Notes under the pieces: generated by a model | What the model was told of the DNA's origin: nothing | Database searches by the model: none | Seen by the model: only the letters and a program-made list of their open reading frames with translations | In this document: positions 9,251 to 48,026 of the stretch, one piece after another | Layout of the letters: every line of letters begins with the position of its first letter | Position numbering within the stretch: position 1 is the first letter of the stretch | Position numbers and translations under genes: made by a program | Sequence record: DRR723986_7057 | DNA length: 48,026 nucleotides | Strand: one strand, 5' to 3'

Positions 9251-9388
9251 GGTGAAGACTCCTGTCATTCCTGGTGTGCTACGCCCGAGATGAAGAGATG
9301 GATGGTCGCGGGCAGTAGTAATGTAACACCGCAGCGAGAGAAATCCCTCGCGGCAGTGGATAAGATTTTTTAAAGAAGCGGGGAATCG

Positions 9389-9409
9389 CGGCGGGCAGGA
9401 CGCCCGCCG
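9389..9409 (-). terminator. GC-rich hairpin just downstream of argH
   Basis: CGGCGGGC-AGGAC-GCCCGCCG perfect 8-bp stem; the U-tract is weak. Confidence 0.45.
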
Positions 9410-9415
9410 ACGGAC

Positions 9416-10813: not shown

Positions 10814-10871
10814 TGCAAACAGGTCCTGTGTCATTGGGCGCTGCGCGGGCAGCCCATCGGAAAAGCGGCAG

Positions 10872-10880
10872 AGTATAGCA
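10872..10880 (-). promoter_or_regulatory. Extended -10 element (sigma70) for argH
   Basis: TGCTATACT on the minus strand about 60 bp upstream of the proposed start. Confidence 0.55.
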
Positions 10881-11002
10881 GAAATTACCGCGCTCTCGCT
10901 GGCTGTCTGCGCCGGGGCTGCCACTCACCGCCGTAACGTTTATGTAATATAGCGTGGCCATAATTTCGCGTGCCGAAAACTCCTGTGAAGTAAGGATCCG
11001 CC

Positions 11003-12616: not shown

Positions 12617-12702
12617 CGCGCGCCGATGAGTTGGGCGGTTTAGTCTGTCAGGCGGCTGGCGTATGATACGGCGCTGATGCTTTACACGGACCCACGCTAA
12701 TC

Positions 12703-25521: not shown

Positions 25522-25595
25522 TGTAGGAGCCCGCCTGAGGGCGACCAGAACGAACGGTAGGGGTTGGATTAATCGCGGTCAGGCCCGCTCCTACA
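25522..25595. repeat. REP doublet (REPIN-like) upstream of mutM
   Basis: TGTAGGAGCCCGCCTGAGGGCGA + 28-bp spacer + TCGCGGTCAGGCCCGCTCCTACA; inverted TGTAGGAGC/GCTCCTACA ends. Confidence 0.88.
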
Positions 25596-26560: not shown

Positions 26561-26670
26561 GTAGGACAGTGTGGCCCGCGAGTGGAGCGAGTGCTGTGGC
26601 CAGCCCGCCCGAGGGCGACCAGAACGAACGCTAGGGATTGGAATCAATCGCGGTCAGACCCGCTCCTACA
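26561..26670. repeat. REP doublet (REPIN-like) downstream of mutM plus an extra degenerate REP
   Basis: 26595-26670 is a direct repeat of 25522-25595 including the spacer; GTAGGACAGTGTGGCCCGCGA at 26561-26581. Confidence 0.85.
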
Positions 26671-29795: not shown

Positions 29796-30012
29796 GGGTG
29801 GCGCTACGAGTAGTGTTGCCGTGGGGGCGACTTACCCAAGGCACTCCCTGCGGTCGCGGGGCACGCTGTTAGTCGCGAAAGTTCGTAGCGCTAAGCCACA
29901 TTCGATAGCACGTTTAGCAATGAGCTTTTTTAGACCTCATTCGCGGTTAGAACCGCTACCCAAGACATTCCCTGCAGTCATGATGCATAGCGTGGACTTG
30001 AGCAAAACGATG

Positions 30013-32344: not shown

Positions 32345-32420
32345 GTAATAATTTCCAGCGAGCTCAGCATCATGCTGATAGTGTTTAAACGTTTCTTTCT
32401 ATCTAGATGTCTATTGAGTA

Positions 32421-33560
32421 TCAGTTGTTGTTATCACCCAAATCGTCGATAACACCCACAGCCGAAACGCTCGGCAGCAACTGGCTCAAGAAGCGGTTCC
32501 AACGCGTGATCGGCGCGGGTGACACATACACAATATCGCGTGGCGACAGCGTGAACTTATCAGCCAGCATAAAGCCAACGGCAGAGGCTGCGTTTAGGTG
32601 GTAGATGGTGGCGTTATAAACGGGCATGCCGTCTTCGTCGCGGCTTACCCCGGTGTTGCGCAGCACGTATATACCGCGGCCGTCGGCGCGGTTTTCATTA
32701 ATGCCATTGGCGCTGGCCAGTGCCTCAGCCAGGCTGGTGTCTGTGCGGGACATAAGAATGCCCTGCGGCCGGTTAACTTCGCCGAGTACAAAGACTTTGT
32801 CGGCGTCATTGCGTGGCACGTGAATCAGGTCGCCGTGTTGCAGCAGCAGGTTTTCACTCCAGGCGCCGGTTTCATAGAGCGAGCGCAGCGAGATGCTCTG
32901 GGTTTCACCATTGCGCGTTAGTTGAATGTCGCCCCACGAGGCGTTGTTGGCGAGGCCGCCCAACTGCTCAATGGCGTCGATCAGTGTGAGCGGAATTTTG
33001 GTGACTGGCACAACGCCGGGCTGACGAACTGCGCCGCTTACGTACACACGCTGGCTTCTGAAATCTGCCACGCGCACATCGACTTGTGGGCGCTTAATTA
33101 CCGAGGCCAGCTTTTGCTCCAACTGCGCCTTAATTTCGGCAGTTGTCAGGCCATTCACTTGCAGCTCGCCGGCATAGGGGTAGAACACCGTACCGTCGGC
33201 CTTCACCTCGTTGCCACCCTCGGCTGCGGTGCGGAAGGAACCCGCGGGTATCGTTAGTTCGGGGTGTTCCCACACGGTAATGGTCAGCACATCGCCGGGG
33301 CCAACGCGATATTGGTAGTCGTTAAGCTGCTGCTCCAAGTCACTGCTCAGCGTTGCTTGGCGAGCGGCGGGGGCGTTCATATTGGCGAGCAGGGTCGCGT
33401 TAATGGGAATGTAGCGAATCTCGGTTTCGGCGGGAGTGTAATCCTCGGGGGTATCGTCAAACCACACCGAGTTCATGCGGCTCATATTACTGCCCGGTAC
33501 TACCGTGCATGCTGCGCAGCTCAGCACCAATGCGCTGGCAAGCAAATTTTTCACTTTCAT
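32421..33560 (-). CDS. wza: Outer-membrane polysaccharide export lipoprotein Wza
   Basis: Lipobox 'AAC-TVVPG', 'YRVGPGDVLTITVWEHPEL', 'FYPYAG', C-terminal 'WNRFLSQLLP'. Confidence 0.96.
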   Translation of the reverse strand: MKVKNLLASALVLSCAACTVVPGSNMSRMNSVWFDDTPEDYTPAETEIRYIPINATLLANMNAPAARQATLSSDLEQQLNDYQYRVGPGDVLTITVWEHPELTIPAGSFRTAAEGGNEVKADGTVFYPYAGELQVNGLTTAEIKAQLEQKLASVIKRPQVDVRVADFRSQRVYVSGAVRQPGVVPVTKIPLTLIDAIEQLGGLANNASWGDIQLTRNGETQSISLRSLYETGAWSENLLLQHGDLIHVPRNDADKVFVLGEVNRPQGILMSRTDTSLAEALASANGINENRADGRGIYVLRNTGVSRDEDGMPVYNATIYHLNAASAVGFMLADKFTLSPRDIVYVSPAPITRWNRFLSQLLPSVSAVGVIDDLGDNNN

Positions 33561-33650
33561 TCCCTAACCCTTGCTTACACCGCTGGCCCCGTGGTGCCAG
33601 CTAGTCCATAAATAATGTTTTAATTTTCTGTACGAGTCGTATCGTCGCGA

Positions 33651-35153
33651 CTACCAGCGATAGCGCGCCTCAATGAAGGCGCTCTCAATGCCGTGGTCGT
33701 AGTTATACAATTGCAGGCCGTCATCCACTTTGATGTAGCCCACCTCGGCGTTCAAACCGCCAAATTGCTGGCTGTAACTAATTTCCAGCGTATTGCCTTC
33801 ACCCTGGCTGCGGCCAGCGGCGCCGCTACCGCCGCCATCAATATTTAAGGCAACGTCCGAGTAACGCAATGACCAACGGCTACCGTCCGGCAGCATCCAG
33901 TCCAGGCCGATAGTATCCAGCTCGCTGTCGTTGTCGATACTGGCACCAATGGCGCGGCCCTTATAGCGATAGCCATTCTTGTAAATGGCATGTTCATACA
34001 CGTAGTCACTGCGCTCATCGCCAATTAGTGCGCCCGCTGTGGTTTGGGTGCGCTCTAAAAACCAGTGCAGGCGGTGCTTTTCAATTACAAACAAGCCATT
34101 CAGGCCCACTGCGTGGGTTAAGCGGGAGGGTTGGTAGCCGCTTTCATCTTCGCCAATATGCTGGATGTAAGCGCCTTGATTGCCCCAAGGCGTCGCCCAC
34201 AGCATTTTCACATCAAAACCTGCCAGCTGGTTGCCCGGCTCATTTTCCTGGGTAAGTCCGCCGTCCCCGCGGTTGTCATTACCCAGCATAAGATCCTTAA
34301 AACTGGAAAAGTTCTCATCGCGGCCATCGCCACCCCACTGGGCGGTGCGGCTGGCAGCAATTTCCAGCCACTGTGCGGGCTTGACCGCTACGCGCATTCC
34401 TAACAATTTGGCGCCGGGTACTGCGCGTTCCCCTTCCAGCTGGCCGGCAAAGGCCTGTAGTTGCCAGGGGCCAAGCCAGCTCAACAGCGGCGTTTCAAAT
34501 TCATGGGCTCGGTTGCGTTGCAGGCTAATACCCGGAACCGGCCTCGCATTGTTGGAAAGCAGCAAACTGCTTTGCCAGCCAGCGCCCCACCAGCGGTCAA
34601 TGGCGCCCAGTGTTACGCCCCAATTGCCAAAGGCCCGTGCAAGATAGCTGCCATCTAGTCGGCGGTGTTCGCGCGGTGCATCGGGAATGTCATAGCTAAG
34701 GCGCAATTCGCCTGCCCAGCTGCTGCTCATAAATTCAGCGGAAACAGCGCCGTATTCGGGGGCATTGTTGCTGTCGCCGAAGCCGGTTAAAAATCGACGC
34801 TCCTGCTCGCTGTGAGCAAGTTCAATACTGGCGCTAAAGGGCTTGCGTTCCTGCTCAAAGCGGGCCAACAAAGCGTCCAGTGCTTGGCGTTCCAGTGCAC
34901 TAATATTGCGGGCCTGGGCGCGTTTCAGGTCAGGTAAAATACTGCCCCACATCAGTGGCCATTGAGTGGTTGGTGCGGTAATAATGCCGGTGCTGGATAG
35001 CAGCTCAATGTGGTGGCGCAAATCCAGCTCGTTTGGTCCAATCCAAGGCTTTGCGCTGGCGACAGAAGGCGCCACAGCACTAGCGGCCAGTAAACAGGCA
35101 GACAAAGAAAACGCTTTACACCGCTGGCCAATCAACATGCCTTGGAATTCCAT
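33651..35153 (-). CDS. wzi: Capsule assembly outer-membrane protein Wzi
   Basis: 'TQWPLMW', 'LDGSY', 'DRWWGAGWQSSLLLSNNARP', 'GMRV..KP', 'SRTAQWGG', 'PGNQLAGFD'; start may be 35138. Confidence 0.93.
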   Translation of the reverse strand: MEFQGMLIGQRCKAFSLSACLLAASAVAPSVASAKPWIGPNELDLRHHIELLSSTGIITAPTTQWPLMWGSILPDLKRAQARNISALERQALDALLARFEQERKPFSASIELAHSEQERRFLTGFGDSNNAPEYGAVSAEFMSSSWAGELRLSYDIPDAPREHRRLDGSYLARAFGNWGVTLGAIDRWWGAGWQSSLLLSNNARPVPGISLQRNRAHEFETPLLSWLGPWQLQAFAGQLEGERAVPGAKLLGMRVAVKPAQWLEIAASRTAQWGGDGRDENFSSFKDLMLGNDNRGDGGLTQENEPGNQLAGFDVKMLWATPWGNQGAYIQHIGEDESGYQPSRLTHAVGLNGLFVIEKHRLHWFLERTQTTAGALIGDERSDYVYEHAIYKNGYRYKGRAIGASIDNDSELDTIGLDWMLPDGSRWSLRYSDVALNIDGGGSGAAGRSQGEGNTLEISYSQQFGGLNAEVGYIKVDDGLQLYNYDHGIESAFIEARYRW

Positions 35154-35335
35154 CCTTTTTAGTAATTACGCGAACACCCCACGCCGCTGTTCACAACGCC
35201 AATATTCCGAACAGGCGAATGCGCCGCAATGATACGCGTGACGTAACAAGAAGGACAAGGATCATGCCAACGAACTGTGACAATGTCACGACATTGCCAA
35301 TATCGCCCCATAGCTACCTCGCGCAGCGTTCTCGT

Positions 35336-35640
35336 TGTAGGGCGGCGTGGGCCATGACCGTATGGAATGTCTCGGGTAGCGGGCTTGACCGCGAATGATG
35401 TATCAGAGGGATTCCAGTAGGGCTGCGTACCTATGCCCGCGACCACGCTTTGCATCGGCCAACCCACAGCGCATCCACGCCTGCACCAAAAAAACCCTCC
35501 CAGCAACCTGGCGCACCAAACCTGTGCTGTTTCGGTAGGGTGGCTTGCCCGTGACGTTGTAGGAGCGGTTTTAACCGCGAATGATCCCCCTGCGGACTAT
35601 CAGGGCAGTGGCCCCTCGGTCGCCATAGGGGCTGCCCACA
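35336..35640. repeat. Cluster of REP and degenerate REP copies in the wzi-wcaJ intergenic region
   Basis: TGTAGGAGCGGTTTTAACCGCGA (35558-35580), AGCGGGCTTGACCGCGAATGAT (35378-35399), GGTAGGGTGGCTTGCCCGTGA (35534-35554), TGTAGGGCGG (35336), TCGCCATAGGGGCTGCCCACA (35620-35640). Confidence 0.7.
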
Positions 35641-35742
35641 ACCCGCCTCCCTCTCCACCCAAATTAACCAAACCGTAGCATTTCGCTGTCACACTACGCG
35701 CCGTAACAAAGCGAGCTCGGCAAGCTGGGTGTTAAGTCAATA

Positions 35743-35760
35743 TTGGCGCAAAACCTGCAT
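35743..35760 (+). promoter_or_regulatory. Candidate sigma54 (-24/-12) promoter facing wcaJ
   Basis: TTGGCGCA-AAAC-CTGCA matches TGGCACG-N4-TTGCW with correct GG/GC spacing. Confidence 0.4.
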
Positions 35761-36122
35761 AGAGATGTGGTGCTAGGCGCGGGGTGGGTTGGCAGGCTCG
35801 GCGGCTCTGCGCTGCGCCAATCTTGTCACTATGTCATCTTGTTAGAGATTTGCGGTTGGCTTTTGCACTGATGTGGCGCAAAATAGCGCCCCCTAAATAA
35901 GGCTGCCTTGTAAGAAAATCGCGATTGCTGCGTGTGCCTTCTACACAAATTCGGTGTGGGATATCTACGTTTTTTGTCTCGTGACAGTACAGGGTATTCG
36001 GTCGTCCTCGCATTACGGACAATCTAGCGAGTGTGGGTAAACGTCCCTGTTGTGCAGAGCTTGCAAGCAGTTGATGTAAAGCCACTGAAAAGCCCTTGGT
36101 ACCGTCAAGGAGGAGCAAAGTC

Positions 36123-37505
36123 ATGCATGACAAGCCATTTATTTCAGAGTCTAAGTTAAGGCTGGCGCTACTTCACCGTGTAGGTGATATCTGTGTTATC
36201 CCTCTTTCTGCCTATTTTTGCCATGGCTTGGTGTATCAAAGCCTGAGTTTAAGTAATTTCTTAGGATTGAGTGTGGCTATCAGCGTGTTAATCGCGCTTT
36301 GGCTGTACCCTGCCATCGGCTTGTACCGAGCATGGCGTGGTGAAAGCACGGGTAAAGAGCTGCTTAATGCTGCTCAGGCGTGGACCTTCAATTTCCTTAT
36401 CTTGTCCTTCTTGCTCTATTTCACTAAGAACGCTGACTCCGCCCGCATTGAGTTCTTCTCGGCGTGGTTTATGGCTGGCTTGTTTGGCTTGCTGGGGGTG
36501 CGAGCCGCTATTCGTGCGTTGCTCAACAATGCCCGGCGAAAAGGCCGCAATAAGACCCACGTTGTGGTGGTGGGCGATAACGGCCTCGCAACCAGCACAA
36601 TCCAGAATCTTAAAAAGGCAGAATGGGCCGGCTTCAGCGTAAAAGGCTATTTTGGCGAGGGCGAAATAGTCGGAGAACGCCGCTTAGGTGGTTTTCACGA
36701 AATTAATGAGTACTTGGAAAGCGATAAAGACGCCGTCGACCAAATATGGATTGCTATGCCCCTCTCTAAAGAGAAGGAGATCAATCAAATTCTGGAGGAG
36801 CTGCGTTTCGCTACACAAGACGTTCGTCTTATTCCTGGTATTGAGGGTTTCCGCTTAATCAATAATTCGGTGGCACAAATAGCCGATATGTCCGTTATCA
36901 ACCTGCAAGTATCGCCAATGACGGGGATGAACCGCTTTGTTAAAGCGGTGGAAGACCGAGTTTTAGCTGCCACAATATTAACGCTAATTAGTCCTATTAT
37001 GATTGCGTTGGCCATAGGCGTGAAACTGTCATCGCCTGGGCCGGTGTTCTACCGCCAAGAGCGGGTTAGTCGTGCGGGAAAACCCTTCATGATGTACAAA
37101 TTCCGCTCCATGCCAGTGGATACAGAAAAAAATGGCGTTCAATGGGGCAATGCTGGTAGCAAAGCAACGAATAAATTTGGACAGTTTATTCGCAAAACGA
37201 GTTTGGATGAGCTGCCTCAATTCCTGAATGTTTTATTTGGTGATATGTCAATTGTCGGTCCGCGGCCTGAGCGTACCCAGTTTGTTAACGAATTTAAGCA
37301 CGATATAGACGGTTATATGCAAAAACACATGGTTAAAGCTGGAATAACGGGCTGGGCACAAGTGAATGGCTGGCGCGGTGATACAGACCTAAGCAAGCGA
37401 ATTGAGTGTGATCTTTATTATATAAACAATTGGTCCGTTTGGATGGATTTAAAGATTATATTCATGACCTTTTTTAAGGGGTTTGTGCACAGTAATGCAA
37501 AATAG
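36123..37505 (+). CDS. wcaJ: Undecaprenyl-phosphate glucose phosphotransferase (initiating transferase, WcaJ family)
   Basis: Four N-terminal TMs, 'SSPGPVFYRQER', 'KFRSM', 'RKTSLDELPQF', 'SIVGPRPE', 'VKAGITGWAQVNGWRGDTD'. Start ATG 36123 after AGGAGG. Confidence 0.93.
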   Translation: MHDKPFISESKLRLALLHRVGDICVIPLSAYFCHGLVYQSLSLSNFLGLSVAISVLIALWLYPAIGLYRAWRGESTGKELLNAAQAWTFNFLILSFLLYFTKNADSARIEFFSAWFMAGLFGLLGVRAAIRALLNNARRKGRNKTHVVVVGDNGLATSTIQNLKKAEWAGFSVKGYFGEGEIVGERRLGGFHEINEYLESDKDAVDQIWIAMPLSKEKEINQILEELRFATQDVRLIPGIEGFRLINNSVAQIADMSVINLQVSPMTGMNRFVKAVEDRVLAATILTLISPIMIALAIGVKLSSPGPVFYRQERVSRAGKPFMMYKFRSMPVDTEKNGVQWGNAGSKATNKFGQFIRKTSLDELPQFLNVLFGDMSIVGPRPERTQFVNEFKHDIDGYMQKHMVKAGITGWAQVNGWRGDTDLSKRIECDLYYINNWSVWMDLKIIFMTFFKGFVHSNAK

Positions 37506-37517
37506 CCGGAAATTAAA

Positions 37518-38210
37518 ATGACTGAAAAAAATCTAGCAATAATACCTGTCAGAGGTGGCTCTAAGGGTATTCCTCGTAAAAACGTCAAGAGCTTGTGTGG
37601 TCGACCTTTAGTTGCGTGGTCGATAGATCAGGCAATCAATTCCAAAGAAATCGACCGGGTTATTGTCAGTACAGACTGTCCAGAGATTGCTGAAGTGGCT
37701 AGAAAATATGGCGCTGAGGTGCCATTTATGCGACCAGATGAGCTTGCTTCAGATGTGGCTACAACGGAGTCTAGTTTATTGCATGCATTGGAGTGGTTGG
37801 AAGAAAATCAATCGTATAAACCAGATAATGTAGTGTTGCTGCAAGCAACATCCCCCATTCGAGGGGAGGGGGTTATCGATAGTGCCATTCAAAAGTTTTA
37901 TCAAGATGATGTCGACTCGTTACTAAGCGTTTGCGAATTCTGGCACTTTCTCTGGGAAGGGGCTTCGAAGCCATTAGCATTGTATGACTATATGAATAGG
38001 CCTAGAAGACAGGATATTGATCCAGGGTCCATAAAATACAAAGAAAACGGCTCCATATATATCACCAAATCAGAATCTTTAATTTCCTCTGGAAATCGAC
38101 TGGCTGGGGAAATATCAATGTATGTTATGGACGAGAGTGAAAGCTTCGAAATAGATACTCCTCTTGACTGGTTGGTGGTTGAGTCAATTATGAAAGCAAA
38201 AGGTTTCTAG
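37518..38210 (+). CDS. neuA: Acylneuraminate (nonulosonate) cytidylyltransferase, NeuA family
   Basis: '[15 protein letters not shown]', 'VSTD', 'RPDELASD', 'LLQATSP', 'RPRRQD', 'ENGSIY', 'EIDTPLD'. Confidence 0.93.
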
Positions 38211-38214
38211 TCAA

Positions 38215-40458
38215 ATGTTGATTAAGCGGAAAATATCAGACTACTTAGTTTTTGAGAATGAAAGCATTCTCAAGGCATTAGAGAAAATTAATCGGAACAA
38301 AAACAGAATTGTCTTTATTGTTAGCGAAAGCGGGACACTTGAGGGTGCCCTGTCAGACGGCGATTTTCGTCGCTGGCTTACCTCCTCTAACGCTTATGAC
38401 CTGAATGAGCCTGTTTCAGTTGCCATGAATCGCAGAGTTGTTTCAATGCCTATCGACTCGGCAAGAGACAAAATAGAGTCACTGTTTGATAAATCTGTTG
38501 ATCTAATACCTTTGGTCGACGCGAGCAGTCGGTTGGTTGCTGTTGCAGTAGAAAAAGAAAAAGGGATATCCATTGGAAGGCATACAATTTCCGAAAACTC
38601 TCCAGCATATCTGATAGCTGAAATTGGTAATAACCACAATGGTGATATTGCGCTAGCAAAAAAAATGGTCGATCTAGCTGTAGGCGCTGGAGCTGACTGC
38701 GTTAAGTTTCAAATGAGGGATATGGCGTCACTATATAAAAGTGGCTCCGATAAAGATGATTCGGCCGATCTCGGTGCTCAATATACAATGGACTTGCTCA
38801 GCAAGTTCCAATTAAAGAATGATGAGCTTATTGAGGTCTTTGATTATTGCAAAGATAAAGGGTTAACACCCCTTTGCACCCCCTGGGATATTAAAAGTCT
38901 AGAGGTCTTGGAAAACTATGGGATGGAAGCCTACAAGGTTGCTTCCGCAGACTTCACTAATACCCAATTACTGGAGGCATTGGCGTCTACTGGAAAGCCG
39001 CTTATTTGCTCTACGGGAATGTGCTCAGAAGCTGAGATAATCAAGTCTGCCGACTTCCTGAAAAGCAAGGGAGCGGAGTTTATCATCCTTCATTGCAACT
39101 CAACGTACCCCACCCCATTTAAGGACGTTAATTTATCTTATATAAAACGGCTGGCAAATGTGACGGGGTCATTAGTAGGATATTCGGGCCATGAAAGAGG
39201 GATATCGGTCCCGGTAGCTGCAGTGGCTCTTGGGGCGAAGGTAATCGAAAAGCATTTCACTGTCGACAAAGATATGGAAGGGAATGATCACAAAGTATCT
39301 CTACTTCCCGGCGAATTTAGCGACATGGTGAAGCAAATTAAGCAAGTTGAAGAGGCATTAGGTAGTGGTGCCGAGAGAATCATCACTCAAGGAGAGATGA
39401 TTAATAGAGAAACATTGGCCAAGAGCTTAGTTATAAATTGTGATCTAGAGGAAGGTTCGGTCATTACACGTGAAATGATTGAAATAAAAAGCCCGGGTCA
39501 GGGATTGCAGCCAATATATTTAGATGAGCTGATTGGGCGTCGGGCAAATCGGCGGCATGAAAAAGGCGGTTTTTTCTTTGAGTCGGATTTGAAAGATCAG
39601 CAAGTAAAAGCGCGAAACTATAATTTTAATCGCCCGTTTGGAATTCCAGTTCGTTACCACGATTATGAAAAGCTGTCATCAAAATCAAATTTGGACTTCG
39701 TCGAATTTCACTTAAGCTATCAAGATATGGAGTTAAACCTGAGTGACTTCTTTGACGGCCCTCAGGACATTGGATTCGCGGTGCACAGCCCAGAGCTATT
39801 CTCTGGTGACCACATTATTGATCTTGCTTCTCAAGATGATGAGCATTGGAGCCGGTCGATAAATGAACTTCAGCGAGTGTGCGATATAACGAGAGAGCTT
39901 AAACATTACTTTCCAAAAACCGCGCGCCCTGTAATTGTGCTCAATGCGGGTGGGTTCAAGTCAACGGGGTTTGTGGCGAAAAAAGATCGTCCAGCAATGT
40001 ATGAAAAAATTGCGGAGGCCATTGGACGGGTTGATCAAGAAGGTGTTGAGATCATTATTCAAACTATGCCTCCTTTCCCCTGGCACTTTGGGGGGCAGAG
40101 CTACCACAATCTATTTGTGGATCCCCAGGAAATTAAGCACTTCTGTAAAGAGCACGACGTGCGCATATGTTATGACGTATCCCATTCCATGATGGCATGT
40201 AGTTATTATAATTGGGATCTCTCTGACTTCACTCAAACAGTTGCCCCATTTATTGCACATATGCATGTTGTAGATGCATTGGGCGTTGATGGAGAAGGTG
40301 TTGAAATCGGAAAGGGAGATGTCGACTTTCAGCAGTTAGCAGAAGACTTGAGGATTTTATCTCCGTCCTCACAATTTATTCCGGAGGTTTGGCAGGGCCA
40401 TAAGAATAACGGAGAAGGCTTCTGGGAGGCGCTTAGTTTTCTAGAGGGGTTGCTGTGA
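38215..40458 (+). CDS. Nonulosonate synthase (NeuB family) fused to an N-terminal CBS pair and C-terminal SAF and xylose-isomerase/AP-endonuclease-2-like TIM barrel
   Basis: CBS 'GALSDGDFRRWL'; NeuB 'IAEIGNNHNGD', 'VKFQ', 'KVASAD', 'STGM', 'HCNSTYP', 'GYSGHERG', 'IEKHFT'; SAF 'KSPGQGL'; C-terminal 'DVSH', 'HMHVVDA', 'PEVWQGH'. Confidence 0.9.
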   Translation: MLIKRKISDYLVFENESILKALEKINRNKNRIVFIVSESGTLEGALSDGDFRRWLTSSNAYDLNEPVSVAMNRRVVSMPIDSARDKIESLFDKSVDLIPLVDASSRLVAVAVEKEKGISIGRHTISENSPAYLIAEIGNNHNGDIALAKKMVDLAVGAGADCVKFQMRDMASLYKSGSDKDDSADLGAQYTMDLLSKFQLKNDELIEVFDYCKDKGLTPLCTPWDIKSLEVLENYGMEAYKVASADFTNTQLLEALASTGKPLICSTGMCSEAEIIKSADFLKSKGAEFIILHCNSTYPTPFKDVNLSYIKRLANVTGSLVGYSGHERGISVPVAAVALGAKVIEKHFTVDKDMEGNDHKVSLLPGEFSDMVKQIKQVEEALGSGAERIITQGEMINRETLAKSLVINCDLEEGSVITREMIEIKSPGQGLQPIYLDELIGRRANRRHEKGGFFFESDLKDQQVKARNYNFNRPFGIPVRYHDYEKLSSKSNLDFVEFHLSYQDMELNLSDFFDGPQDIGFAVHSPELFSGDHIIDLASQDDEHWSRSINELQRVCDITRELKHYFPKTARPVIVLNAGGFKSTGFVAKKDRPAMYEKIAEAIGRVDQEGVEIIIQTMPPFPWHFGGQSYHNLFVDPQEIKHFCKEHDVRICYDVSHSMMACSYYNWDLSDFTQTVAPFIAHMHVVDALGVDGEGVEIGKGDVDFQQLAEDLRILSPSSQFIPEVWQGHKNNGEGFWEALSFLEGLL

Positions 40459-41390
40459 AGGTCGGTATTTTCAATAACGACTATAGTCGCCAAATACTGA
40501 CAGACCTCGATGACAGTCAGTCTTATAAATGGCTAATTAATATCGGTAAGACAGACCACCGTTATTCTGTTTACTGTGGGTCTCGATCGCCTCTTGAGCA
40601 GCTCTTTGTGGCGGTTAGGCTATTAAAGGATATACGCTCCAGTCAAATTAGCGAAGTCATTTTGCCCAATTCGCACTGCATTATTACAGGGGTGCTTTTA
40701 GGTGGGCTTAGGGGCGAAGTAAGATTTAGCCAAGTAGCTGAGGGTACTTTAAATTACCATAAACGGAGTGTTGGTCCGAAAGAGTGGGTGCGATTTATAT
40801 TAAAAAGAGTGATTTGTGCGGTATCGCTTCTGAAGTTCAAGCCAAATTGCAGTGATCCTATCAATTTGAAAGAAAATGGTGACTACAAGATCTATTGTCG
40901 AATGAAGGAGGGGTTGGTCACCAATGCAAAGTCGAGGCATGTGGTTAAATACAGGAAGCCTTATGTCGTAACTCCGAATTCAAATGCTGTTGTTATAGCT
41001 GGACAGCATATATCTGATTCGGTTTGCGATAAATACCTGAAAGAAATGTTGCCATCTGAGCTAAGGGATTATTTAAGAGGAAAGAAAATATATTATCAGC
41101 CGCACCCTCGCAGTGCGGATTATGGGGCGAGAGAAATAGAGATGGTATATGAGGGGCTTGATCTAGAGTTGCTGTCGTCAGGCTATAGCTCCTTAGAGGA
41201 TGCGGTATGCGGGATCGGGGCATCAGATGTCGTGACTGTAGGTGGGACTAGCGCGTATTTGGATTTCGTCGGCCGAGGGTTGAGTCTAAAAATGCACGCC
41301 TTCGGTTTCTCATTGCTAGTTCTATCTGGCTTTTCGCAATACAAAGACTTAAGGGGGCTCCATGAAAATTTAGGGGTCAAAATATATTGA
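40455..41390 (+). CDS. Putative CMP-nonulosonate (sialyltransferase-like) glycosyltransferase
   Basis: Soluble 311-aa ORF translationally coupled to the NeuB fusion; 'VAEGTLNY' resembles the (D/E)(D/E)G motif, 'YYQPHPR' the HP motif, 'GTSA' the S/T-S motif. Confidence 0.6.
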   Translation: MKVGIFNNDYSRQILTDLDDSQSYKWLINIGKTDHRYSVYCGSRSPLEQLFVAVRLLKDIRSSQISEVILPNSHCIITGVLLGGLRGEVRFSQVAEGTLNYHKRSVGPKEWVRFILKRVICAVSLLKFKPNCSDPINLKENGDYKIYCRMKEGLVTNAKSRHVVKYRKPYVVTPNSNAVVIAGQHISDSVCDKYLKEMLPSELRDYLRGKKIYYQPHPRSADYGAREIEMVYEGLDLELLSSGYSSLEDAVCGIGASDVVTVGGTSAYLDFVGRGLSLKMHAFGFSLLVLSGFSQYKDLRGLHENLGVKIY

Positions 41391-42670
41391 AAGCTAACAC
41401 AAATGAAAAGCAAAAGTGGGGCAATGGCAGTTTACGTGCGTTACTTATAATAATATTTTTATTTGGAGTATATACGAATTTAACCATCGAGGTTTTTGGG
41501 CGTCCATACTATGGGTATATATCTGCGGTTGCCGCAGTCTTTTTGCTCATGATTTCAAAGGGGGGGATTGTACGTTCAAAGATGGTTGTGCAGAGCTTTT
41601 TGGTGCTGTTTTTCACTCTTGTTTTTTCTTCATTTTTTAGTACTGGCGGGCCAACCGTTAATAAAGTTGTATCATCTGGATTGCTTGTTTCATCAATATT
41701 ATTTTCTTCGGTGCTGTTCTCTGAGCTGCGCCGCTTATCATCTAGTCATTTATATAATCTTTTTTTTATCCTTGTTGCATTGGTTGCCGTATTGTTGGTG
41801 ATGGAGGTCTATCTAGGGATGAGAGGGGTCTTTGATAAAGTTAGGGAGGCGCTTTACTCTTCCGAAGGCTTGTTTTTGTATGAGTCGACGGAGCGCGATG
41901 TGGCTTTACATGGGGCGATAAGAGCAAACGGTCTGACACAAGAGCCCTCTCATCCGGCTAAATTTCTGTCGGTTTTACTAGCTTGTATGTATTTTCTTGC
42001 CCGCCGAAATTCACAACGGATTATAGTCTTTGGGATCTTTTTGGTGATTTCCTACCTTGTTAAGTCGCCATCTGTGATTGTGTTCCCTGCATTAATTTTA
42101 TGTAAGAGATTATTCTTTGAAAACCCAGCTGGGTTAAAGAGCTTTGCTGTCTTGGTCGTGTTGTTAGCCGTTGTATTTAGTGCGCCAAGCTGGGTATCAA
42201 TGTTGCCGTTTGAGAGGGCGAAGGCGATATCAAATGGGCAGGATGCGAGCTCTATAATGAGGACAGTCGGTCCCGCTATGGTTACAGCAGAAGTTTTGTC
42301 AAAAAATCCATTTTTCGGATTTGGTGTCGGGGGTGACGACTCTGGGGGTGGCGCATTACTAGAGGTGTATTCTAAGTTTTCATCTGTCAATGTTGATGGG
42401 TTGTATGATGACAGCTCTCACGGATGGGGAAATGCATTTTTTTTAATGGTGTCAAGTGTGGGGCTGCTCGGGTTGGCGGCATTACTTCTTACGTTGATGC
42501 ATCATCTAAAGGTTTTAGGAGGGGCGGCAGGTAGCTTTGCTATATCTTCATTTGTAATTCTACTTTCTGTTGATGGTGCCTTCGCCATACTTCGTCCTTG
42601 GGCGTATTCGTTTATGGTGGTAGCTGTTCTCTCAATACACGAGCGAGAGCTAAAAGAGGTGTCTGATTGA
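41387..42670 (+). CDS. wzy: Putative Wzy polysaccharide polymerase
   Basis: About 10-11 hydrophobic segments, 'RANGLTQEPSH' and 'KNPFFGFGVG' loops typical of Wzy/O-antigen ligase-like proteins; locus context. Confidence 0.72.
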   Translation: MKANTNEKQKWGNGSLRALLIIIFLFGVYTNLTIEVFGRPYYGYISAVAAVFLLMISKGGIVRSKMVVQSFLVLFFTLVFSSFFSTGGPTVNKVVSSGLLVSSILFSSVLFSELRRLSSSHLYNLFFILVALVAVLLVMEVYLGMRGVFDKVREALYSSEGLFLYESTERDVALHGAIRANGLTQEPSHPAKFLSVLLACMYFLARRNSQRIIVFGIFLVISYLVKSPSVIVFPALILCKRLFFENPAGLKSFAVLVVLLAVVFSAPSWVSMLPFERAKAISNGQDASSIMRTVGPAMVTAEVLSKNPFFGFGVGGDDSGGGALLEVYSKFSSVNVDGLYDDSSHGWGNAFFLMVSSVGLLGLAALLLTLMHHLKVLGGAAGSFAISSFVILLSVDGAFAILRPWAYSFMVVAVLSIHERELKEVSD

Positions 42671-43854
42671 GCTCTTTCGATGTTCGTAAAATATTAAAGT
42701 CTTCCGCGATATATGCGGGGGGCGTTGCTTTAGTTTCGTTGGGGAGGCAGTTTCTTCTCCTTCCCATTGTGGCGCGAAGTTATCCTGCTGAATTCGGTGA
42801 ATTCGCTCTGTTTTTTGTTTTATTTGACTTGGTTGTAAATGGGGCTGCCGGCTATCTTGGCGACTACTATTATAAACTTGGATGTACAATAGAGTATTTT
42901 ATAAGACGATTTTTTTGGACAATAATACCTGCATCATTTTTTTTCTCTGTCGTGTTTTGCATGTTCTTAGATCTCGGGTATGGCTACTTATTACCACTTT
43001 CGTTGATTGTTTTTTTGAGTTCAGTTAACGCGCTGCTTTTTAAGTATCTATATATAAAGAGAGGTTTTTTTTATAGCTTGGTGCATAATGGTGCGAAATT
43101 TATCTCTGTAATATTTTTTTCGGTGTCGGCTTATTTTTTAGAAGATTTTGATATTTTCTCTTTCTATGTATCGTTTTCGCTTGCTGCAGAGTCGGCTGTA
43201 ATGATTTTTTTGGTATTTTTTTTGAGGCGAGAGCTACGCGGGGTTAGTTTTAGATTAGATTTAGAGGTTGCTCCATTTTTCTTTTTATTGTCGATCGTTA
43301 TATCGGTTTTCGTGCAACGAATTGAAGTTTATTTTGCCGAATATTTTTTCCCGGTTGACTTTCCCGGTTTCTTTGCATACTCATCTGTTATTTATTTTTT
43401 TGTCATCCCTTTTTCAATGCTGTTTTCGGTAACCATGTCGTCTGCTCTAGCGAGTGTGTCGGAGGATGGGGAGTTGTTGAGGCATTCGTTTTCGGTGGTG
43501 AAGGTAGGGTTGCTAATATCGCTGTTGGTGTCACTGGTAGCAGGCTATGCTCAAAACCACTTGATGTCGATTTTTTATGAAAGCGTTAGGTTTCCGCCAG
43601 CGTCAATAAAGTGGTATGCCTTCATATACTGTTTATTTTCCTGTTCTTATGTCTATGTAAGAGTAATTTTGCATAGGGTTGTCGGTGAGTTTGCTATATT
43701 GCTGGCATATTTTACCACTATTTTTTTTGGTTTGTTGGCGTATTTATGTGTCGATAATGTTATGGGCGCGGCGCTTGCGTCGATGGCGGTGAAGCTGGTT
43801 GTTATTTTTTTGTTTTTAGGTTGGTGCGTTAATCATAAGCGGAAGGTTTCATGA
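42667..43854 (+). CDS. wzx: Putative Wzx flippase
   Basis: Highly hydrophobic; N-terminal 'ILKSSAIY...[20 protein letters not shown]' typical of MOP/Wzx; locus context. Confidence 0.72.
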
Positions 43855-44933
43855 ATATAATGGTCACGGGTGGTGCTGGGTTTATAGGTAGTGCTGTTGT
43901 TCGACAGTTGCTCGCACACACTAATCACAGGGTTTTGAATATAGATGCCCTAACTTACGCAGGGAATGTAGAGAGTATTCCCGATTATATTGCTGCTAAT
44001 AATAATTATTTTTTTGAAAAAAAAGATATTTGCGATGCAAATGAATTGAGCCGCATATTTTCGATTTATCAACCAGATGTCGTTATGCACCTGGCCGCTG
44101 AAAGTCATGTAGATCGTTCTATAGAAGGTCCTAGTGCGTTCATTCAAACAAATATAGTTGGGACCTATACGCTCCTGCAGGCTGCATTGGGTTATTGGCA
44201 GGGATTGTCAGAAGATCGGAAGTCACGATTTCGCTTCCATCATATTTCTACGGATGAAGTATATGGTGACTTAGAGGGAACAGATGATCTTTTCACGGAG
44301 GAGACCCCTTATGCGCCGAGTTCTCCCTATTCTGCGTCGAAAGCGAGTTCTGATCATTTAGTCCGCGCATGGCACCGTACCTATGGCTTACCAGTTGTTG
44401 TCACTAATTGCTCTAACAACTATGGGCCATACCATTTTCCAGAAAAACTTATCCCACATATGATTTTGAACGCCCTGGCGGGTAAATCGCTGCCTGTGTA
44501 TGGTGATGGTAAGCAAATTCGCGATTGGCTGTATGTGGAAGATCATGCTCGCGCATTGGTTAAAGTGGTGACCGAGGGTGAGGTTGGAGCAACCTACAAT
44601 ATTGGCGGCCACAATGAAAAGCAGAATATCGATGTTGTAAATACGATATGTGAACTGCTGGAAGAATTGGCTCCTGAAAATCCTAATTCATTAGCCAGTG
44701 GTTGCGAAGGTGGTTTCAAGCGGTTAATTACCTACGTTAAAGATCGCCCTGGTCATGATGCTCGCTATGCCATCGATGCTGGAAAAATTCAGCGTGATCT
44801 CGGATGGGTGCCAGAGGAAACGTTTGAGAGTGGAATGAGAAAAACAGTTGTCTGGTACTTAGAAAATCGGGAGTGGTGGGAGCGCGTACTCTCAGGAGAT
44901 TATCAGCTGGCTCGAATAGGTGAGAGCGTATAG
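43851..44933 (+). CDS. rmlB: dTDP-glucose 4,6-dehydratase
   Basis: '[10 protein letters not shown]', '[12 protein letters not shown]', 'ISTDEVYG', 'YSASKA', '[14 protein letters not shown]', 'DRPGHD'. Confidence 0.98.
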
Positions 44934-45010
44934 ATAACGATAGAGACTTATACAGCTTTTACGGCGCCAGACGCCGCTTCTAAAAACGCGAACGTTAATC
45001 AAGGATAGTT

Positions 45011-45892
45011 ATGAAGCCTTACAAAGGTATTATTTTGGCGGGAGGGTCAGGTACGCGACTTCATCCTATTACTATGGGTATATCGAAACAGCTTCTCCCT
45101 ATTTATGATAAGCCCATGATCTATTACCCTCTCTCGGTGCTTATGCTGTCGGGAATTCGCGAGATATTAGTTATATCTACCCCTACAGATTTGCCTGGCT
45201 TCCAGCGACTACTAGGTGATGGAAGCCGCTTCGGTATATCGATTTCGTATGCCGAGCAGCCGAGCCCGGATGGATTAGCACAAGCGTTTACTATTGGTGC
45301 TGATTTTATAGGCAACGACAACGTTAGTTTGGTGCTTGGCGACAATATTTTCTATGGTCAGCATTTTAGCGACAAATTGAAGCAGGCCTCTGGCTTGGAG
45401 TCTGGAGCAACAGTATTCGGTTACCACGTTACAGACCCAGAGCGTTTTGGGGTTGTTGAATTTGATGGGCAAGGCAAGGCCATCAGTATTGAAGAGAAGC
45501 CCGTTCAGCCGAAGTCTTCATATGCTGTAACAGGGCTTTACTTTTACGACAATGACGTAGTGGACATTGCTCGCAATATCCAGCCCTCTCCCCGTGGCGA
45601 GCTGGAAATTACCGATGTTAATATGGCCTATCTTGAGGCTGGGAAGCTTAACGTTCAAGTGCTTGGGCGGGGTTTCGCGTGGTTAGATACAGGAACCCAC
45701 GATTCATTGATCGAAGCTGGTCAGTTTGTTCAAACGGTAGAACATCGGCAGGGTTTAAAGGTTGCCTGTTTGGAAGAAATCGCCTATCGCCAGGGATGGG
45801 TAAGTCAAGAGCAGCTTGCGGAGCAAGCAGTAGCCTTAAAAAAGACAGGCTATGGCCAGTACTTGCTAAAAGTGGCTGACGGTTATCAATAA
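45011..45892 (+). CDS. rmlA: Glucose-1-phosphate thymidylyltransferase
   Basis: '[14 protein letters not shown]', '[17 protein letters not shown]', 'LGDNIFYG', 'RGELEITD', 'WLDTGT'. Confidence 0.98.
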
Positions 45893-45920
45893 ATTCCACG
45901 CATGTTGATAGGACAATTTT

Positions 45921-46475
45921 ATGAACGTTATTCCAACAAAACTTAAGGATTGCGTGATTATTGAGCCGAAGGTTTTTGGCGACGAACGCGGCTTTTTCCT
46001 TGAGACATTCCAGGCAGAGCGATACCGCGAACAGGCGGGTATAGATCTAACTTTTGTGCAGGATAATCACTCTCGCTCCCAAAAGGGGGTGTTGCGAGGT
46101 CTGCATTTTCAGAAATCTAAACCGCAGGGGAAGTTGGTGCGCGTTGTTCGCGGTGAGGTTTATGACGTAGCCGTTGATATTCGTGAGAGCTCTCCCAGTT
46201 TCGGGCAGTGGGAGGGAGTTATCCTCTCTGAAGAAAATAAGCGCCAATTTTGGGTTCCGCCAGGCTTTGCTCATGGATTTTTAGTGCTTAGTGATACTGC
46301 TGACTTTGAGTATAAGTGCACTGATTACTATGATCCTAGCGATGAAGGCTCTTTGTCCTGGGATGACAAAGAGCTGGCTATTCAATGGCCCACTATTGAG
46401 GGCGTGGAAATCCAACTTTCGGCTAAAGATAGTGCCGCGCCAAGTTTTTCAGCACTAAAGAAGGGGCTTGGCTGA
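45921..46475 (+). CDS. rmlC: dTDP-4-dehydrorhamnose 3,5-epimerase
   Basis: 'FGDERGFFLE', 'QDNHSRS', 'LRGLHFQ', 'DVAVDIR', 'GFAHGF', 'YKCTDYY'. Confidence 0.98.
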   Translation: MNVIPTKLKDCVIIEPKVFGDERGFFLETFQAERYREQAGIDLTFVQDNHSRSQKGVLRGLHFQKSKPQGKLVRVVRGEVYDVAVDIRESSPSFGQWEGVILSEENKRQFWVPPGFAHGFLVLSDTADFEYKCTDYYDPSDEGSLSWDDKELAIQWPTIEGVEIQLSAKDSAAPSFSALKKGLG

Positions 46476-47356
46476 TGAGAGTTTTATTGACGGGCGCTAA
46501 TGGTCAGGTTGGGCGCTGCGTGCAAGATGTGTTCGCCGGTTCGATGCATGATCTAAAGCCAATGGATCGAAGCGCTCTAGATATCACCGATGGTGCTGCA
46601 GTATCGAGGGCAGTCAAAGCAGTTCGGCCTGATATTATTATCAATGCTGCTGCATACACTGCGGTGGATAAGGCCGAATCCGAGCCAGAGCGTGCCCGTG
46701 CGATAAATGTTACTGGGTCAGCGAATCTGGCAGACGCAGCAAGCGAAATAGATGCTCTGCTTGTTCATATTTCTACTGACTATGTCTTCGACGGAAAGGC
46801 AAGTATACCTTACGTAGAGGATCACCCAACCAACCCTCAGTGTGTGTATGGACGAACAAAGCTTCAAGGTGAAGCAGAAATTCAAAGTCGTTGTAATAAG
46901 CACATAATTCTTCGCACATCTTGGGTGTTTAGTGAGTATGGTAATAATTTTTTGAAAACTATGCTTCGGCTAGGGCAAGAGCGTGATGAGTTGGGAATAG
47001 TCGATGACCAGAGGGGATGCCCAACGTATGCGCGAGACATAGCTAGAGCTGTTTTTTCTGCATGTGAGCAGTATTCGTATGGTCGGGAAGAGCTTGGGAT
47101 TTACCATTTTTGTGGAACCGAAGAGGTAAGTTGGTACCAATTCGCGGGCTTGGTATTTCAACATGCATTTCGGGTTGGCTCTGTAAATAGGATTCCAGTC
47201 ACTAAGCCGATCCTTACAAAAGACTACCCAACGCCAGCCTTACGGCCCGCTTACTCAGGAATGAGTATAATGCGTTTCAAGTCAAGCTATGGCGTAGTGC
47301 CAAATAGCTTGCCTAAAAATATAGAGGATTGCTTGGCAGGGTTGGGTCATGCTTGA
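46475..47356 (+). CDS. rmlD: dTDP-4-dehydrorhamnose reductase
   Basis: 'GANGQVG', 'NAAAYTAVDKAESE', 'HISTDYVFDG', 'YGRTKLQGE', 'VDDQRGCPT', 'RPAYS'. Confidence 0.97.
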   Translation: MRVLLTGANGQVGRCVQDVFAGSMHDLKPMDRSALDITDGAAVSRAVKAVRPDIIINAAAYTAVDKAESEPERARAINVTGSANLADAASEIDALLVHISTDYVFDGKASIPYVEDHPTNPQCVYGRTKLQGEAEIQSRCNKHIILRTSWVFSEYGNNFLKTMLRLGQERDELGIVDDQRGCPTYARDIARAVFSACEQYSYGREELGIYHFCGTEEVSWYQFAGLVFQHAFRVGSVNRIPVTKPILTKDYPTPALRPAYSGMSIMRFKSSYGVVPNSLPKNIEDCLAGLGHA

Positions 47357-48026
47357 TTTTACGGTTGTAGTTCCTGTTTATAATGGTGGTGATATATGGC
47401 GTCAGTCAATTAGATCAATCTTGGATCAAGATATTGCTCCGCAAAAAGTTGTAGTAATCGATTCTAGTTCAACTGATGATAGTGCAAGTCTTGCAATAGA
47501 CGCTGGTTTCTGTGTTAAGACAATCGAAAAGTCCGATTTCGATCATGGAGGAACTAGGAGTGCTGCGCTCCAGTTTGTTGATACTGAAATAGTTATCTTT
47601 ATGACACAGGATGCGATTTTAGACAGCCCTAGTGCATTTCGGCGGATGCTAGACATTTTTCGAAATCAAAATGTTAGTGCTGCTTACGGGAGGCAATTGC
47701 CACACTATGACGCGAACCCACTAGCTAAGTATGCTAGGCAGAATAGCTATGGAGCTCAAGGGTATGTTACTTCAATAGAGGACGACTTTCCGAAAGGCTT
47801 TCGTAAGGCCTTTATGTCCAATTCTTTTGCAGCGTATAGAGTTCGTGACTTAACCGAATTGGGTGCGTTCCCCCAAAAGTTAATTCTTGGAGAAGACTCG
47901 TATTTCACTGCAAAAGCATTGGTTGCGGGGAAGTCGGCAGCCTATGTTGCGGATGCGAAAGTTAGGCACTCTCACAATTACAGCGTTCGAGAAGAGTTTA
48001 AGCGATATTTTGATATTGGAGTATTT
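47349..48026 (+). CDS. GT2 family rhamnosyltransferase (RfbN/WbaN-like), 3' end outside the window; not in the ORF track
   Basis: Hand translation from ATG 47349: MLDFTVVVPVYNGG...IDSSSTD...FDHGGTR...FMTQDA...AYGRQLP...SNSFAAYR...ILGED...VRHSHNYS..EEFKRYFDIGVF, with no stop before the window end. Confidence 0.88.
   Translation, partial: MLDFTVVVPVYNGGDIWRQSIRSILDQDIAPQKVVVIDSSSTDDSASLAIDAGFCVKTIEKSDFDHGGTRSAALQFVDTEIVIFMTQDAILDSPSAFRRMLDIFRNQNVSAAYGRQLPHYDANPLAKYARQNSYGAQGYVTSIEDDFPKGFRKAFMSNSFAAYRVRDLTELGAFPQKLILGEDSYFTAKALVAGKSAAYVADAKVRHSHNYSVREEFKRYFDIGVF

Follow-up and report, generated by a model that had tools for sequence, protein, structure and literature searches.

The capsule locus carried by a 48,026-nucleotide stretch of DNA from sequence record DRR723986_7057 (hereafter the window, meaning the whole stretch analysed) raises the question of which nonulosonic acid (NulO) could be produced by three consecutive genes that are accompanied by none of the usual precursor pathway genes. 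The three genes encode a CMP-sugar synthetase (neuA), a NeuB fusion protein of four domains (neuB) and a coupled soluble protein (orf311). All three had been described earlier (hereafter the original prediction) and were recovered at exactly the same coordinates (Table 1). We consider it fairly probable that, within a Wzy-dependent capsule locus, they form a self-contained module for the synthesis of CMP-activated 3-deoxy-D-glycero-D-galacto-non-2-ulosonic acid (Kdn) and for the transfer of Kdn. Kdn, or another non-aminated ulosonic acid derived from a central sugar phosphate, was also the product originally predicted, and it remains the best reading given the 73% amino acid identity of the fusion to a Serratia NeuB and the lack of amino-sugar routes in the nearest related genome, G001.

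The NeuB fusion and its published relatives

The window fusion shares 545 of 747 residues (73% amino acid identity, one gap, full length) with a NeuB protein of Serratia marcescens. The open reading frame (ORF) for neuB of S. marcescens, as described by Anderson et al. (2022; PMC9000132), is 2241 bp long, codes for 746 amino acids including an extra COG1082 sugar-phosphate isomerase/epimerase domain, and lies beside neuA where the variable region of KL1/KL2 begins. In the account given there, the sialic acid of the KL1 and KL2 capsules is mainly Kdn, with N-acetylneuraminic acid (Neu5Ac) and Kdn in a ratio of ~1:20, and deletion of neuB results in the loss of both the sialic acid signal (Kdn and Neu5Ac) and the capsule. 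A later preprint (PMC11370568) repeats this account of neuB and Kdn. As such, full-length identity to a NeuB protein required for Kdn in S. marcescens supports Kdn as the product in the window. The gene pair heading the variable region, the domain make-up and the Wzi/Wza/Wzc-type locus are common to the Serratia loci, as presented in PMC9000132, and the window, whereas the latter derives from another host (59% G+C) and has divergent export genes and different glycosyltransferases. Kdn-bearing capsules have been linked to infection-associated Serratia clades.

The fusion belongs to a very large protein family. In a search of a collection of 5.8 billion proteins, 7364 of the 8000 candidates scored were significant matches. 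The 120 family matches listed are 60-93% identical to the window protein, all contain both PF03102 and PF01261, and 119 of them are 745-752 amino acids long; a Serratia cluster is one of those represented. The G001 copy shares 84% amino acid identity with that of the window. With its four domains in the same order in one ORF of the ~746-750 amino acid class, and a short NeuA encoded next to it, the window protein is of the Serratia NeuB type. A survey of one genome per species gave at least 600 pattern matches and at least 590 confirmed relatives, and the two-gene module is spread over hundreds of species. The best 80 of these relatives (51-71% identity) derive from Pseudomonadota, Cyanobacteria, Spirochaetes, Bacillota, Actinomycetota, Fibrobacteria, Desulfobulbia and others.

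Gene neighbourhoods were counted for these best 80 of the at least 590 relatives together with locus L001, a full NeuB ORF being obtained in 80 of the 81 loci (L069 did not yield one). A NeuA homologue is encoded within the flanks of 68/80 fusion loci and is absent from those of the other twelve; in 44 loci it is directly adjacent on the same strand, upstream in 39 and downstream in five. Within 6 kb of the fusion, family 2 glycosyltransferases (GT2) are encoded in 25 loci, short-chain dehydrogenases/reductases in 15, GT4 glycosyltransferases in 14, DegT aminotransferases, NAD epimerases and hexapeptide acyltransferases in 13 each, two clusters of methyltransferases in 13 and 11, and GFO/IDH/MocA oxidoreductases in ten. 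The annotated neighbours comprise all ten non-overlapping clusters found in at least ten loci, smaller clusters and antisense ORFs inside neuB being left out. NeuA is the sole regular neighbour of the fusion, and the neuA-neuB pair appears to be portable, dropped into otherwise unrelated polysaccharide loci. The loci with DegT or acyltransferase neighbours (e.g. L053:4852-6282 and L004:12269-12823, respectively, with 11-12 more loci each) include some of the closest relatives.

A fused NulO synthase has also been described in Leptospira interrogans by Ricaldi et al. (2012; PMC3438082), in whose treatment its C-terminal endonuclease-like domain is read as a fused phosphatase and taken to imply an animal-like phosphorylated route, with Neu5Ac as the inferred product. 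The Leptospira protein resembles that of the window, by its description in PMC3438082, in joining a NulO synthase to an AP-endonuclease-2-type domain, but the product inferred for it is Neu5Ac and not Kdn. One Leptonemataceae and one Leptospiraceae locus occur among the 80 relatives. The novelty implied by the original prediction has therefore to be given up: the module, its link to Kdn and the phosphatase idea are already in print (PMC9000132, PMC3438082), the family is very large, and the discovery is incremental. The terms "fusion" and "isomerase" have no occurrence in a large NulO-synthase phylogeny (PMC8208679).

NeuA matches CTP_transf_3 (PF02348; Bitscore: 83.4; cut-off: 22.6), and its best NCBIfam match is PseF (Bitscore: 156.8), under the cut-off of 205.7 for that family; its best PDB sequence matches are the CMP-Neu5Ac synthetases 9ftb, 1eyr, 6ifd and 1qwj (e-values: 1e-32 to 3e-27). 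In the fusion, NeuB (PF03102; Bitscore: 284.8; residues 151-385) and SAF (PF08666; Bitscore: 27.1; residues 404-451) are both above their cut-offs, and this part matches the PDB entries of Campylobacter jejuni PseI (8h2c) and Neisseria meningitidis NeuB (1xuu), with e-values of 1e-44 to 1e-49. The synthase does not reach the equivalog cut-off of either N-acetylneuraminate synthase (TIGR03569, NeuB_NnaB; 320.6 bits against 399.65) or pseudaminic acid synthase (TIGR03586; 241.8 bits against 340.25). The window protein has the NeuB barrel and SAF domain of N. meningitidis NeuB and PseI, to which it can be aligned from end to end over that part, and differs from them by the additional CBS pair and TIM barrel and by a serine in place of Arg314 in the SAF domain of the N. 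meningitidis enzyme. We take Arg314 to be essential and in contact with the sugar substrate. The corresponding residue of the window synthase is Ser426, which is invariant in an alignment of 14 family members (A1), and the same column holds alanine or lysine in the N. meningitidis variants 4ipi and 4ipj. If the role assumed for Arg314 is correct, the sugar would be held differently than in the N. meningitidis enzyme.

The N-terminal CBS pair scores 21.8 bits, slightly below the Pfam cut-off of 24. It is backed by a match of residues 17-108 to PDB 4o9k, the CBS pair of an arabinose-5-phosphate isomerase (e-value: 2.3e-4), by NCBIfam matches to the C-terminal parts of GutQ/KpsF and by the assignment of PF00571 to many homologues, and it thus appears similar to that of arabinose-5-phosphate isomerases of the KpsF/GutQ type. 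A CBS pair of this type has reportedly been crystallised with CMP-Kdo, which, if so, would suggest that the pair in the fusion senses the end product.

In a sample of 401 genomes of the phylum, only three matches to the fusion reach 50% identity, all of them TIM barrel fusions, and the remainder are at most 42% identical; the fusion clade thus stands well apart from ordinary NeuB, LegI and PseI. No close unfused orthologue of the NeuB part, of a kind that might adjoin a HAD phosphatase gene, was present in this sample. One of the three (L098:1486-3390), a TIM fusion of 635 amino acids that is 50% identical over the matched NeuB-SAF part, has no CBS pair, suggesting that the latter is an optional add-on. 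Another type of NeuB fusion, of ~795 amino acids, is encoded in several genomes of the phylum (L101:1471-3861, L104:1465-3846 and L116:142-2526); in it an N-terminal FAD amine-oxidoreductase/UDP-galactopyranose-mutase-like domain precedes NeuB and SAF, and its identity to the window NeuB part is ~39%.

Roles proposed for the fused TIM barrel and orf311

In the pathway that we propose, the NeuB barrel would condense phosphoenolpyruvate (PEP) and mannose 6-phosphate (Man-6-P) to Kdn 9-phosphate (Kdn-9-P), with minor use of N-acetylmannosamine (ManNAc) 6-phosphate possible where it is available. The fused C-terminal metallo-TIM barrel would strip the 9-phosphate from Kdn-9-P and NeuA would activate the resulting Kdn with CTP, and the N-terminal CBS pair may sense a nucleotide or nucleotide-sugar, plausibly CMP-Kdn, providing feedback control. 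Finally, orf311, as an inverting GT-B glycosyltransferase, would move Kdn from CMP-Kdn to an undecaprenyl-diphosphate-linked repeat in which WcaJ would place glucose first and which would also carry L-rhamnose. The phosphorylated Kdn route is reported as shown in Bacteroides thetaiotaomicron and Prymnesium parvum (PMC6200933), where Man-6-P and PEP give Kdn-9-P, Kdn and CMP-Kdn in turn, the same chemistry as is proposed for the window module. The B. thetaiotaomicron phosphatase is a separate enzyme of the haloacid dehalogenase (HAD) superfamily, and that of P. parvum is given as unidentified (PMC6200933), whereas the window locus has no HAD gene and the candidate is the fused TIM barrel.

The TIM barrel matches AP_endonuc_2 (PF01261; Bitscore: 81.5; residues 492-744), and an AlphaFold2 model of it, built on 80 sequences, has a mean predicted local distance difference test (pLDDT) score of 93.5. 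The best Foldseek matches of the model are the L-xylulose-5-phosphate 3-epimerase UlaE at the top, MJ1311 and endonuclease IV. The VIA fold search ranks MJ1311 (3wqo) first (Z: 24.5; root-mean-square deviation (rmsd): 2.6; 242 residues aligned), followed by 2zvr (Z: 24.0), the Art22 isomerase 8z1i (Z: 23.6) and endonuclease IV (5zhz; Z: 23.0), with psicose/allulose epimerases next in rank. At the level of sequence profiles the only match is MJ1311 (e-value: 1.7e-9). As such, MJ1311 and endonuclease IV (5zhz, 1qtw) are the proteins that the domain resembles most in sequence and fold. Ketose 3-epimerases and UlaE bind their metal through an E-D-H-E tetrad, both glutamates of which serve as catalytic bases. 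In the alignment with MJ1311 the first metal glutamate (LEN) corresponds to Gln616, invariant in all 80 sequences, and D654, H684 and E724 are retained. A canonical ketose 3-epimerase was thus rejected as an identity for the domain: the fold is shared (Z: 22-24.5), but the first glutamate of the tetrad is Gln616.

A similar result was obtained for endonuclease IV. An alignment of four genomic nfo genes (A5) and that of the TIM domain (A2) were compared by hhalign, which paired them over 183 columns with 82% probability. Nine His, Asp and Glu residues are invariant in A5, and we take these to be the trinuclear-zinc ligands of endonuclease IV; five of the nine (H524, D654, H657, H684 and E724) are kept in the TIM domain by this profile alignment, and the domain was accordingly not accepted as a full endonuclease IV (TIGR00587). 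MJ1311 reportedly retains all nine. There are, furthermore, invariant His, Asp and Glu residues in the TIM domain beyond the five matched ligands. The domain therefore looks like an intact metalloenzyme that departs both from the textbook ketose epimerases and from a full endonuclease IV. TIGR00587 also matches weakly the C-terminal domain of a Neptuniibacter fusion (G403:C1:592948-593592, inside L007; Bitscore: 21.2; e-value: 1.8e-4).

We favour a role as Kdn-9-P phosphatase, as this appears to be the most economical reading of the TIM domain. All characterised Kdn routes, according to PMC6200933, run from Man-6-P through Kdn-9-P and Kdn to CMP-Kdn, and free mannose is no ordinary cytoplasmic metabolite. 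Furthermore, a promiscuous phosphosugar synthase would account for the 20:1 excess of Kdn over Neu5Ac in Serratia, and a fused phosphatase would explain why NeuA is the sole co-traveller of the fusion. It appears unlikely that the product is Kdn while the TIM barrel acts prior to the condensation as an aldose-ketose isomerase or epimerase, converting fructose or fructose 6-phosphate into mannose or Man-6-P, with a housekeeping phosphatase removing the phosphate. The Pfam and COG labels of the domain (sugar phosphate isomerase/epimerase, COG1082, as cited in PMC9000132), the position of UlaE at the top of the Foldseek matches, the tagatose-epimerase-like proteins and Art22 isomerase among the top VIA matches and the retention of three out of four ligands of the canonical single-metal site all point in that direction. 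The first metal-binding and catalytic glutamate of the ketose 3-epimerases is, however, an invariant glutamine, and a second source of Man-6-P would be redundant in the G001 locus, which already encodes a phosphomannose isomerase. Under an isomerase role, moreover, either the dephosphorylation or the origin of free mannose would lack an explanation, and there would be no reason for NeuA alone to travel with the fusion.

The phosphatase role also allows a wider proposal, which we put forward only tentatively: that the TIM barrel is a new kind of sugar-phosphate phosphatase, with a remodelled Q-D-H-E plus His/Asp centre on an endonuclease-IV/MJ1311-like scaffold, that the CBS pair senses CMP-Kdn, that neuA and neuB provide many phyla with a portable, feedback-controlled route from Man-6-P to CMP-Kdn, and that orf311 founds a Kdn-specific sialyltransferase-like family.

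The GTG start codon of orf311 overlaps the neuB stop codon by 4 nt. No match to its product was found by sequence search against the PDB, and no transmembrane segment was predicted in it. Only three relatives were retrieved by a word-indexed search, and 21 by an exhaustive HMMER search among 1.84 billion representatives. Four columns are invariant in an alignment of 23 sequences, namely E96, G97 and N100 in the motif AEGTLNY and H217 in the motif PHPR, and P218 is present in at least 90% of the sequences, so that the family carries an HP motif. The model of the protein (pLDDT: 91.9) has the two Rossmann domains of a GT-B fold. Its top Foldseek matches are the polysialyltransferase 5wcn (e-value: 1.9e-7) and NST, a GT52 sialyltransferase from Neisseria (2yk5; e-value: 1.2e-6), and the VIA search ranks the polysialyltransferase 5wc6 first (Z: 14.6; rmsd: 5.5; 300 residues aligned), ahead of the GT80 enzyme 2zwi (Z: 12.9) and generic GT-B proteins (Z: ~11). 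An HP motif and a D/E-D/E-G motif are described for the GT38, GT52 and GT80 sialyltransferases in PMC4202792, where a role as catalytic base is proposed for the acidic residue and the histidine is stated to contact the CMP phosphate.

A 300 amino acid protein with a weak match to GT52 (PF07922) is encoded in the same locus of G001, and a homologue of this protein adjoins the fusion of a Pseudomonas. BlastP comparison of orf311 with the G001 protein gave no significant match (e-value: 0.24), and only profile-profile comparison linked them: hhalign aligned the orf311 family with the G001 and Pseudomonas pair over 237 columns with 96.4% probability, AEG of orf311 being placed over EDG and PHPR over PHPR. 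No homologue of orf311 was found by BlastP in the 80 fusion loci; the orf311 profile (A3) identified two members within 10 kb of a fusion (L006, e-value: 1.3e-20; L033, e-value: 4.8e-8) as well as two marginal ones, and none of the 400 class-level genomes scored contains the family. Thus orf311 shares the fold and HP motif of the GT52 (NST, 2yk5), GT38 (5wc6) and GT80 (2zwi) enzymes, which are its top structural matches, but differs from them in its ~10-14% identity, its A-E-G motif, the absence of a Pfam GT52 match and the tiny size of its family. These features suggest a divergent GT52-like transferase for a CMP-activated sugar, and orf311 is a likely Kdn transferase by prediction, one that adds a candidate from a very small and unannotated family.

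Substrate supply and alternative products

The original prediction had noted that NeuC, NeuD, Pse/Leg dehydratase, sugar aminotransferase, acyltransferase and HAD phosphatase genes are all missing from view, and none of them was present among the ORFs selected from ORF lists across the whole window and scanned with Pfam and NCBIfam profiles. It had also called for a genome-wide search for neuC. This was performed in G001 (99% complete; 3.6 Mb), which matches the window with 96.5-97% DNA identity in the left flank, 87-89% in wzc-wza-wzi and 81% in neuA-neuB, and which contains a single NeuB. No match to Epimerase_2 (PF02350; NeuC/WecB) above cut-off was found in this genome (best Bitscore: 21.3), nor were NanE or an AGE-type GlcNAc 2-epimerase found there, and the DegT family is represented by only four partial matches (25-38 bits), which lie in open frames of ~400-480 amino acids. 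Control genomes were positive for each family searched. G001 therefore appears to keep the fusion with neither a known source of ManNAc or ManNAc-6-phosphate nor a convincing aminotransferase for a legionaminic (Leg) or pseudaminic acid (Pse) type pathway, which makes an aminated product unlikely. The end of the G001 locus encodes Ugd, a bifunctional phosphomannose isomerase/GDP-mannose pyrophosphorylase (manC) and an epimerase, and Man-6-P is thus at hand.

The locus continues beyond the window, and missing precursor genes might, as had been feared, lie past its edge. This concern is eased by a metagenome contig, L090, positions 8665-12837 of which are 94.9% identical to the last 4.2 kb of the window (43851-48026; rmlBACD and GT2). 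Beyond this stretch the contig carries the final ~80 codons of the GT2 gene, followed by a ugd gene 89% identical to that of G001. Synteny with L090 and G001 suggests that the unseen remainder is probably the conserved ugd end of the locus rather than a hidden precursor pathway. With no other precursor genes and with a relative devoid of a ManNAc or Leg/Pse route, the window locus adds a clean minimal example of the module, one well suited to testing what the synthase uses as substrate and what the fused barrel does.

It is distinctly unlikely that the module yields an undescribed ulosonic acid, formed from PEP and another sugar phosphate or by further alteration of Kdn by the TIM domain. The scores of the synthase under both the NeuB and the PseI equivalog cut-offs, a TIM active site that fits no characterised subfamily and the wide variation of neighbouring genes between loci would be compatible with such a product, but the gene whose loss removes Kdn in Serratia, as reported in PMC9000132, is 73% identical across all four domains, and the window locus encodes no extra modifying enzyme. 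A true sialic acid capsule, with Neu5Ac made by an animal-like ManNAc-6-phosphate route as proposed for Leptospira, is highly improbable, for although NeuB_NnaB is the best NCBIfam match, Neu5Ac was inferred for the Leptospira fusion in the account of PMC3438082 and minor, locus-dependent Neu5Ac is reported for the Serratia capsule in PMC9000132, the NeuB_NnaB score is under the equivalog cut-off, Arg314 of the N. meningitidis enzyme is replaced by serine, G001 has no NeuC/WecB, NanE or AGE and hence no ManNAc or ManNAc-6-phosphate source that could be found, and the Serratia capsule contains Kdn and Neu5Ac at ~20:1 (PMC9000132).

Several points nevertheless weigh against the synthesis and transfer of Kdn as set out above. 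The genome-wide absences come from G001, a relative, and not from the source genome of the window, and no enzymology of any fusion-family member was found in the literature searched, most subscription journals being outside its reach. Some family members may feed or modify aminated sugars, given the 13/80 loci with DegT aminotransferases and 13/80 with acyltransferases. The activity of the TIM barrel cannot be read from its sequence, its phosphoesterase centre being only putative: four of the nine endonuclease IV ligands are not kept (a glutamate is Q616, a histidine is N577, and a D..H pair falls in a gap with D692 and E694 nearby), and the epimerase-like, isomerase and endonuclease IV entries in the top rows of the VIA ranking are tied within ~1.5 Z. 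Lastly, orf311 has no Pfam or NCBIfam match, including GT52 (PF07922; none at an e-value of 1 or below), and its E96-G97 is preceded by alanine, giving A-E-G and not the full D/E-D/E-G motif.

The capsule locus and its surroundings

The module is embedded in a locus with the genes of a group-1-type, Wzy-dependent capsule, wzi, wza, wzc and an initiating phosphotransferase all being present (Table 1). Wza is supported by NF011658 (Bitscore: 415; above cut-off), Wzi by PF14052 (Bitscore: 274) and Wzc by TIGR01007 above cut-off and by NF008568 (Bitscore: 797; below the cut-off of 1068). No wzb was seen between wza and wzc. The gap between neuA and neuB is 4 nt, and neuB, orf311, the two membrane protein genes and rmlB are chained by overlaps of 4 nt. 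The G+C content falls from ~0.59 in the flanks to 0.39-0.48 in the genes of the locus, and a low G+C content is usual in variable surface-polysaccharide regions. Taken together, the region appears to be a Wzy-type capsule cluster of low G+C content.

Table 1. Positions of the module, its domains and the surrounding capsule genes in the 48,026-nucleotide window
Feature	Position	Strand	Description
neuA	37518-38210	+	230 aa; short form without esterase domain; CMP-nonulosonate (probably CMP-Kdn) synthetase
neuB fusion, whole gene	38215-40458	+	747 aa; four domains, CBS/NeuB/SAF/TIM
CBS pair	38215-38559	+	Residues 1-115 of the fusion; presumed regulatory
NeuB catalytic barrel and SAF	38605-39567	+	Residues 131-451 of the fusion
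Xylose-isomerase-like metallo-TIM barrel	39634-40455	+	Residues 474-747 of the fusion; candidate Kdn-9-P phosphatase
orf311	40455-41390	+	311 aa; GTG start; candidate Kdn transferase, GT-B, divergent GT52-like
wcaJ	36096-37505	+	469 aa; initiating undecaprenyl-phosphate glucose-1-phosphate transferase; TIGR03023, 470.6 bits (cut-off 410.75)
Two multi-pass membrane protein ORFs	41387-43854	+	427 and 395 aa; Wzy/Wzx candidates
rmlB, rmlA, rmlC, rmlD	43851-47356	+	dTDP-L-rhamnose synthesis; TIGR01181, TIGR01207, TIGR01221 and TIGR01214, each above cut-off
GT2 glycosyltransferase	47349-48026	+	Truncated by window end; PF00535, 63 bits; full-length L090 counterpart 305 aa
wzc, wza, wzi	30101-35153	-	Export/assembly; divergent from the wcaJ-side genes

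The module had originally been placed between wcaJ and wzy. Its upstream border stands, as wcaJ is recognised by TIGR03023, but the wzy label has no family match in either membrane ORF: the products of 427 and 395 amino acids, with ~10 and ~11 hydrophobic segments, respectively, gave no Wzy or Wzx family match (no Pfam match at an e-value of 1 or below). The combination of rhamnose with a probably glucose-primed repeat, also predicted, agrees with WcaJ and RmlBACD all scoring over their equivalog cut-offs.

An intergenic region of 0.94 kb (35154-36095) separates the divergent wzi and wcaJ operons. The ops/JUMPstart motif GGCGGTAG has six matches in the window and none in this region upstream of wcaJ. 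In L090, four unrelated genes and no neuA or neuB lie between wcaJ and rmlB, and its wcaJ and wzi are only 73-75% identical to those of the window; this pattern is consistent with exchange of a cassette whose breakpoint lies where rmlB begins.

The first 29 kb of the window harbor housekeeping genes, including those for a TetR regulator and an RND efflux pump, argH, hemCDXY, dapF, lysA, cyaA, fpg, ggt, coaD and others. Two ORFs in this part (2045-3169, + strand, 374 aa; 11003-12616, + strand, 537 aa) have no Pfam match at an e-value of 1e-5 or below. A REP-like element of ~40-130 nt flanks fpg (25528-25568 and 26602-26642) and is also found near 29813-29878 and 35337-35394. Further copies of this element, with 82-95% identity, are numerous on the syntenic contig of G001.

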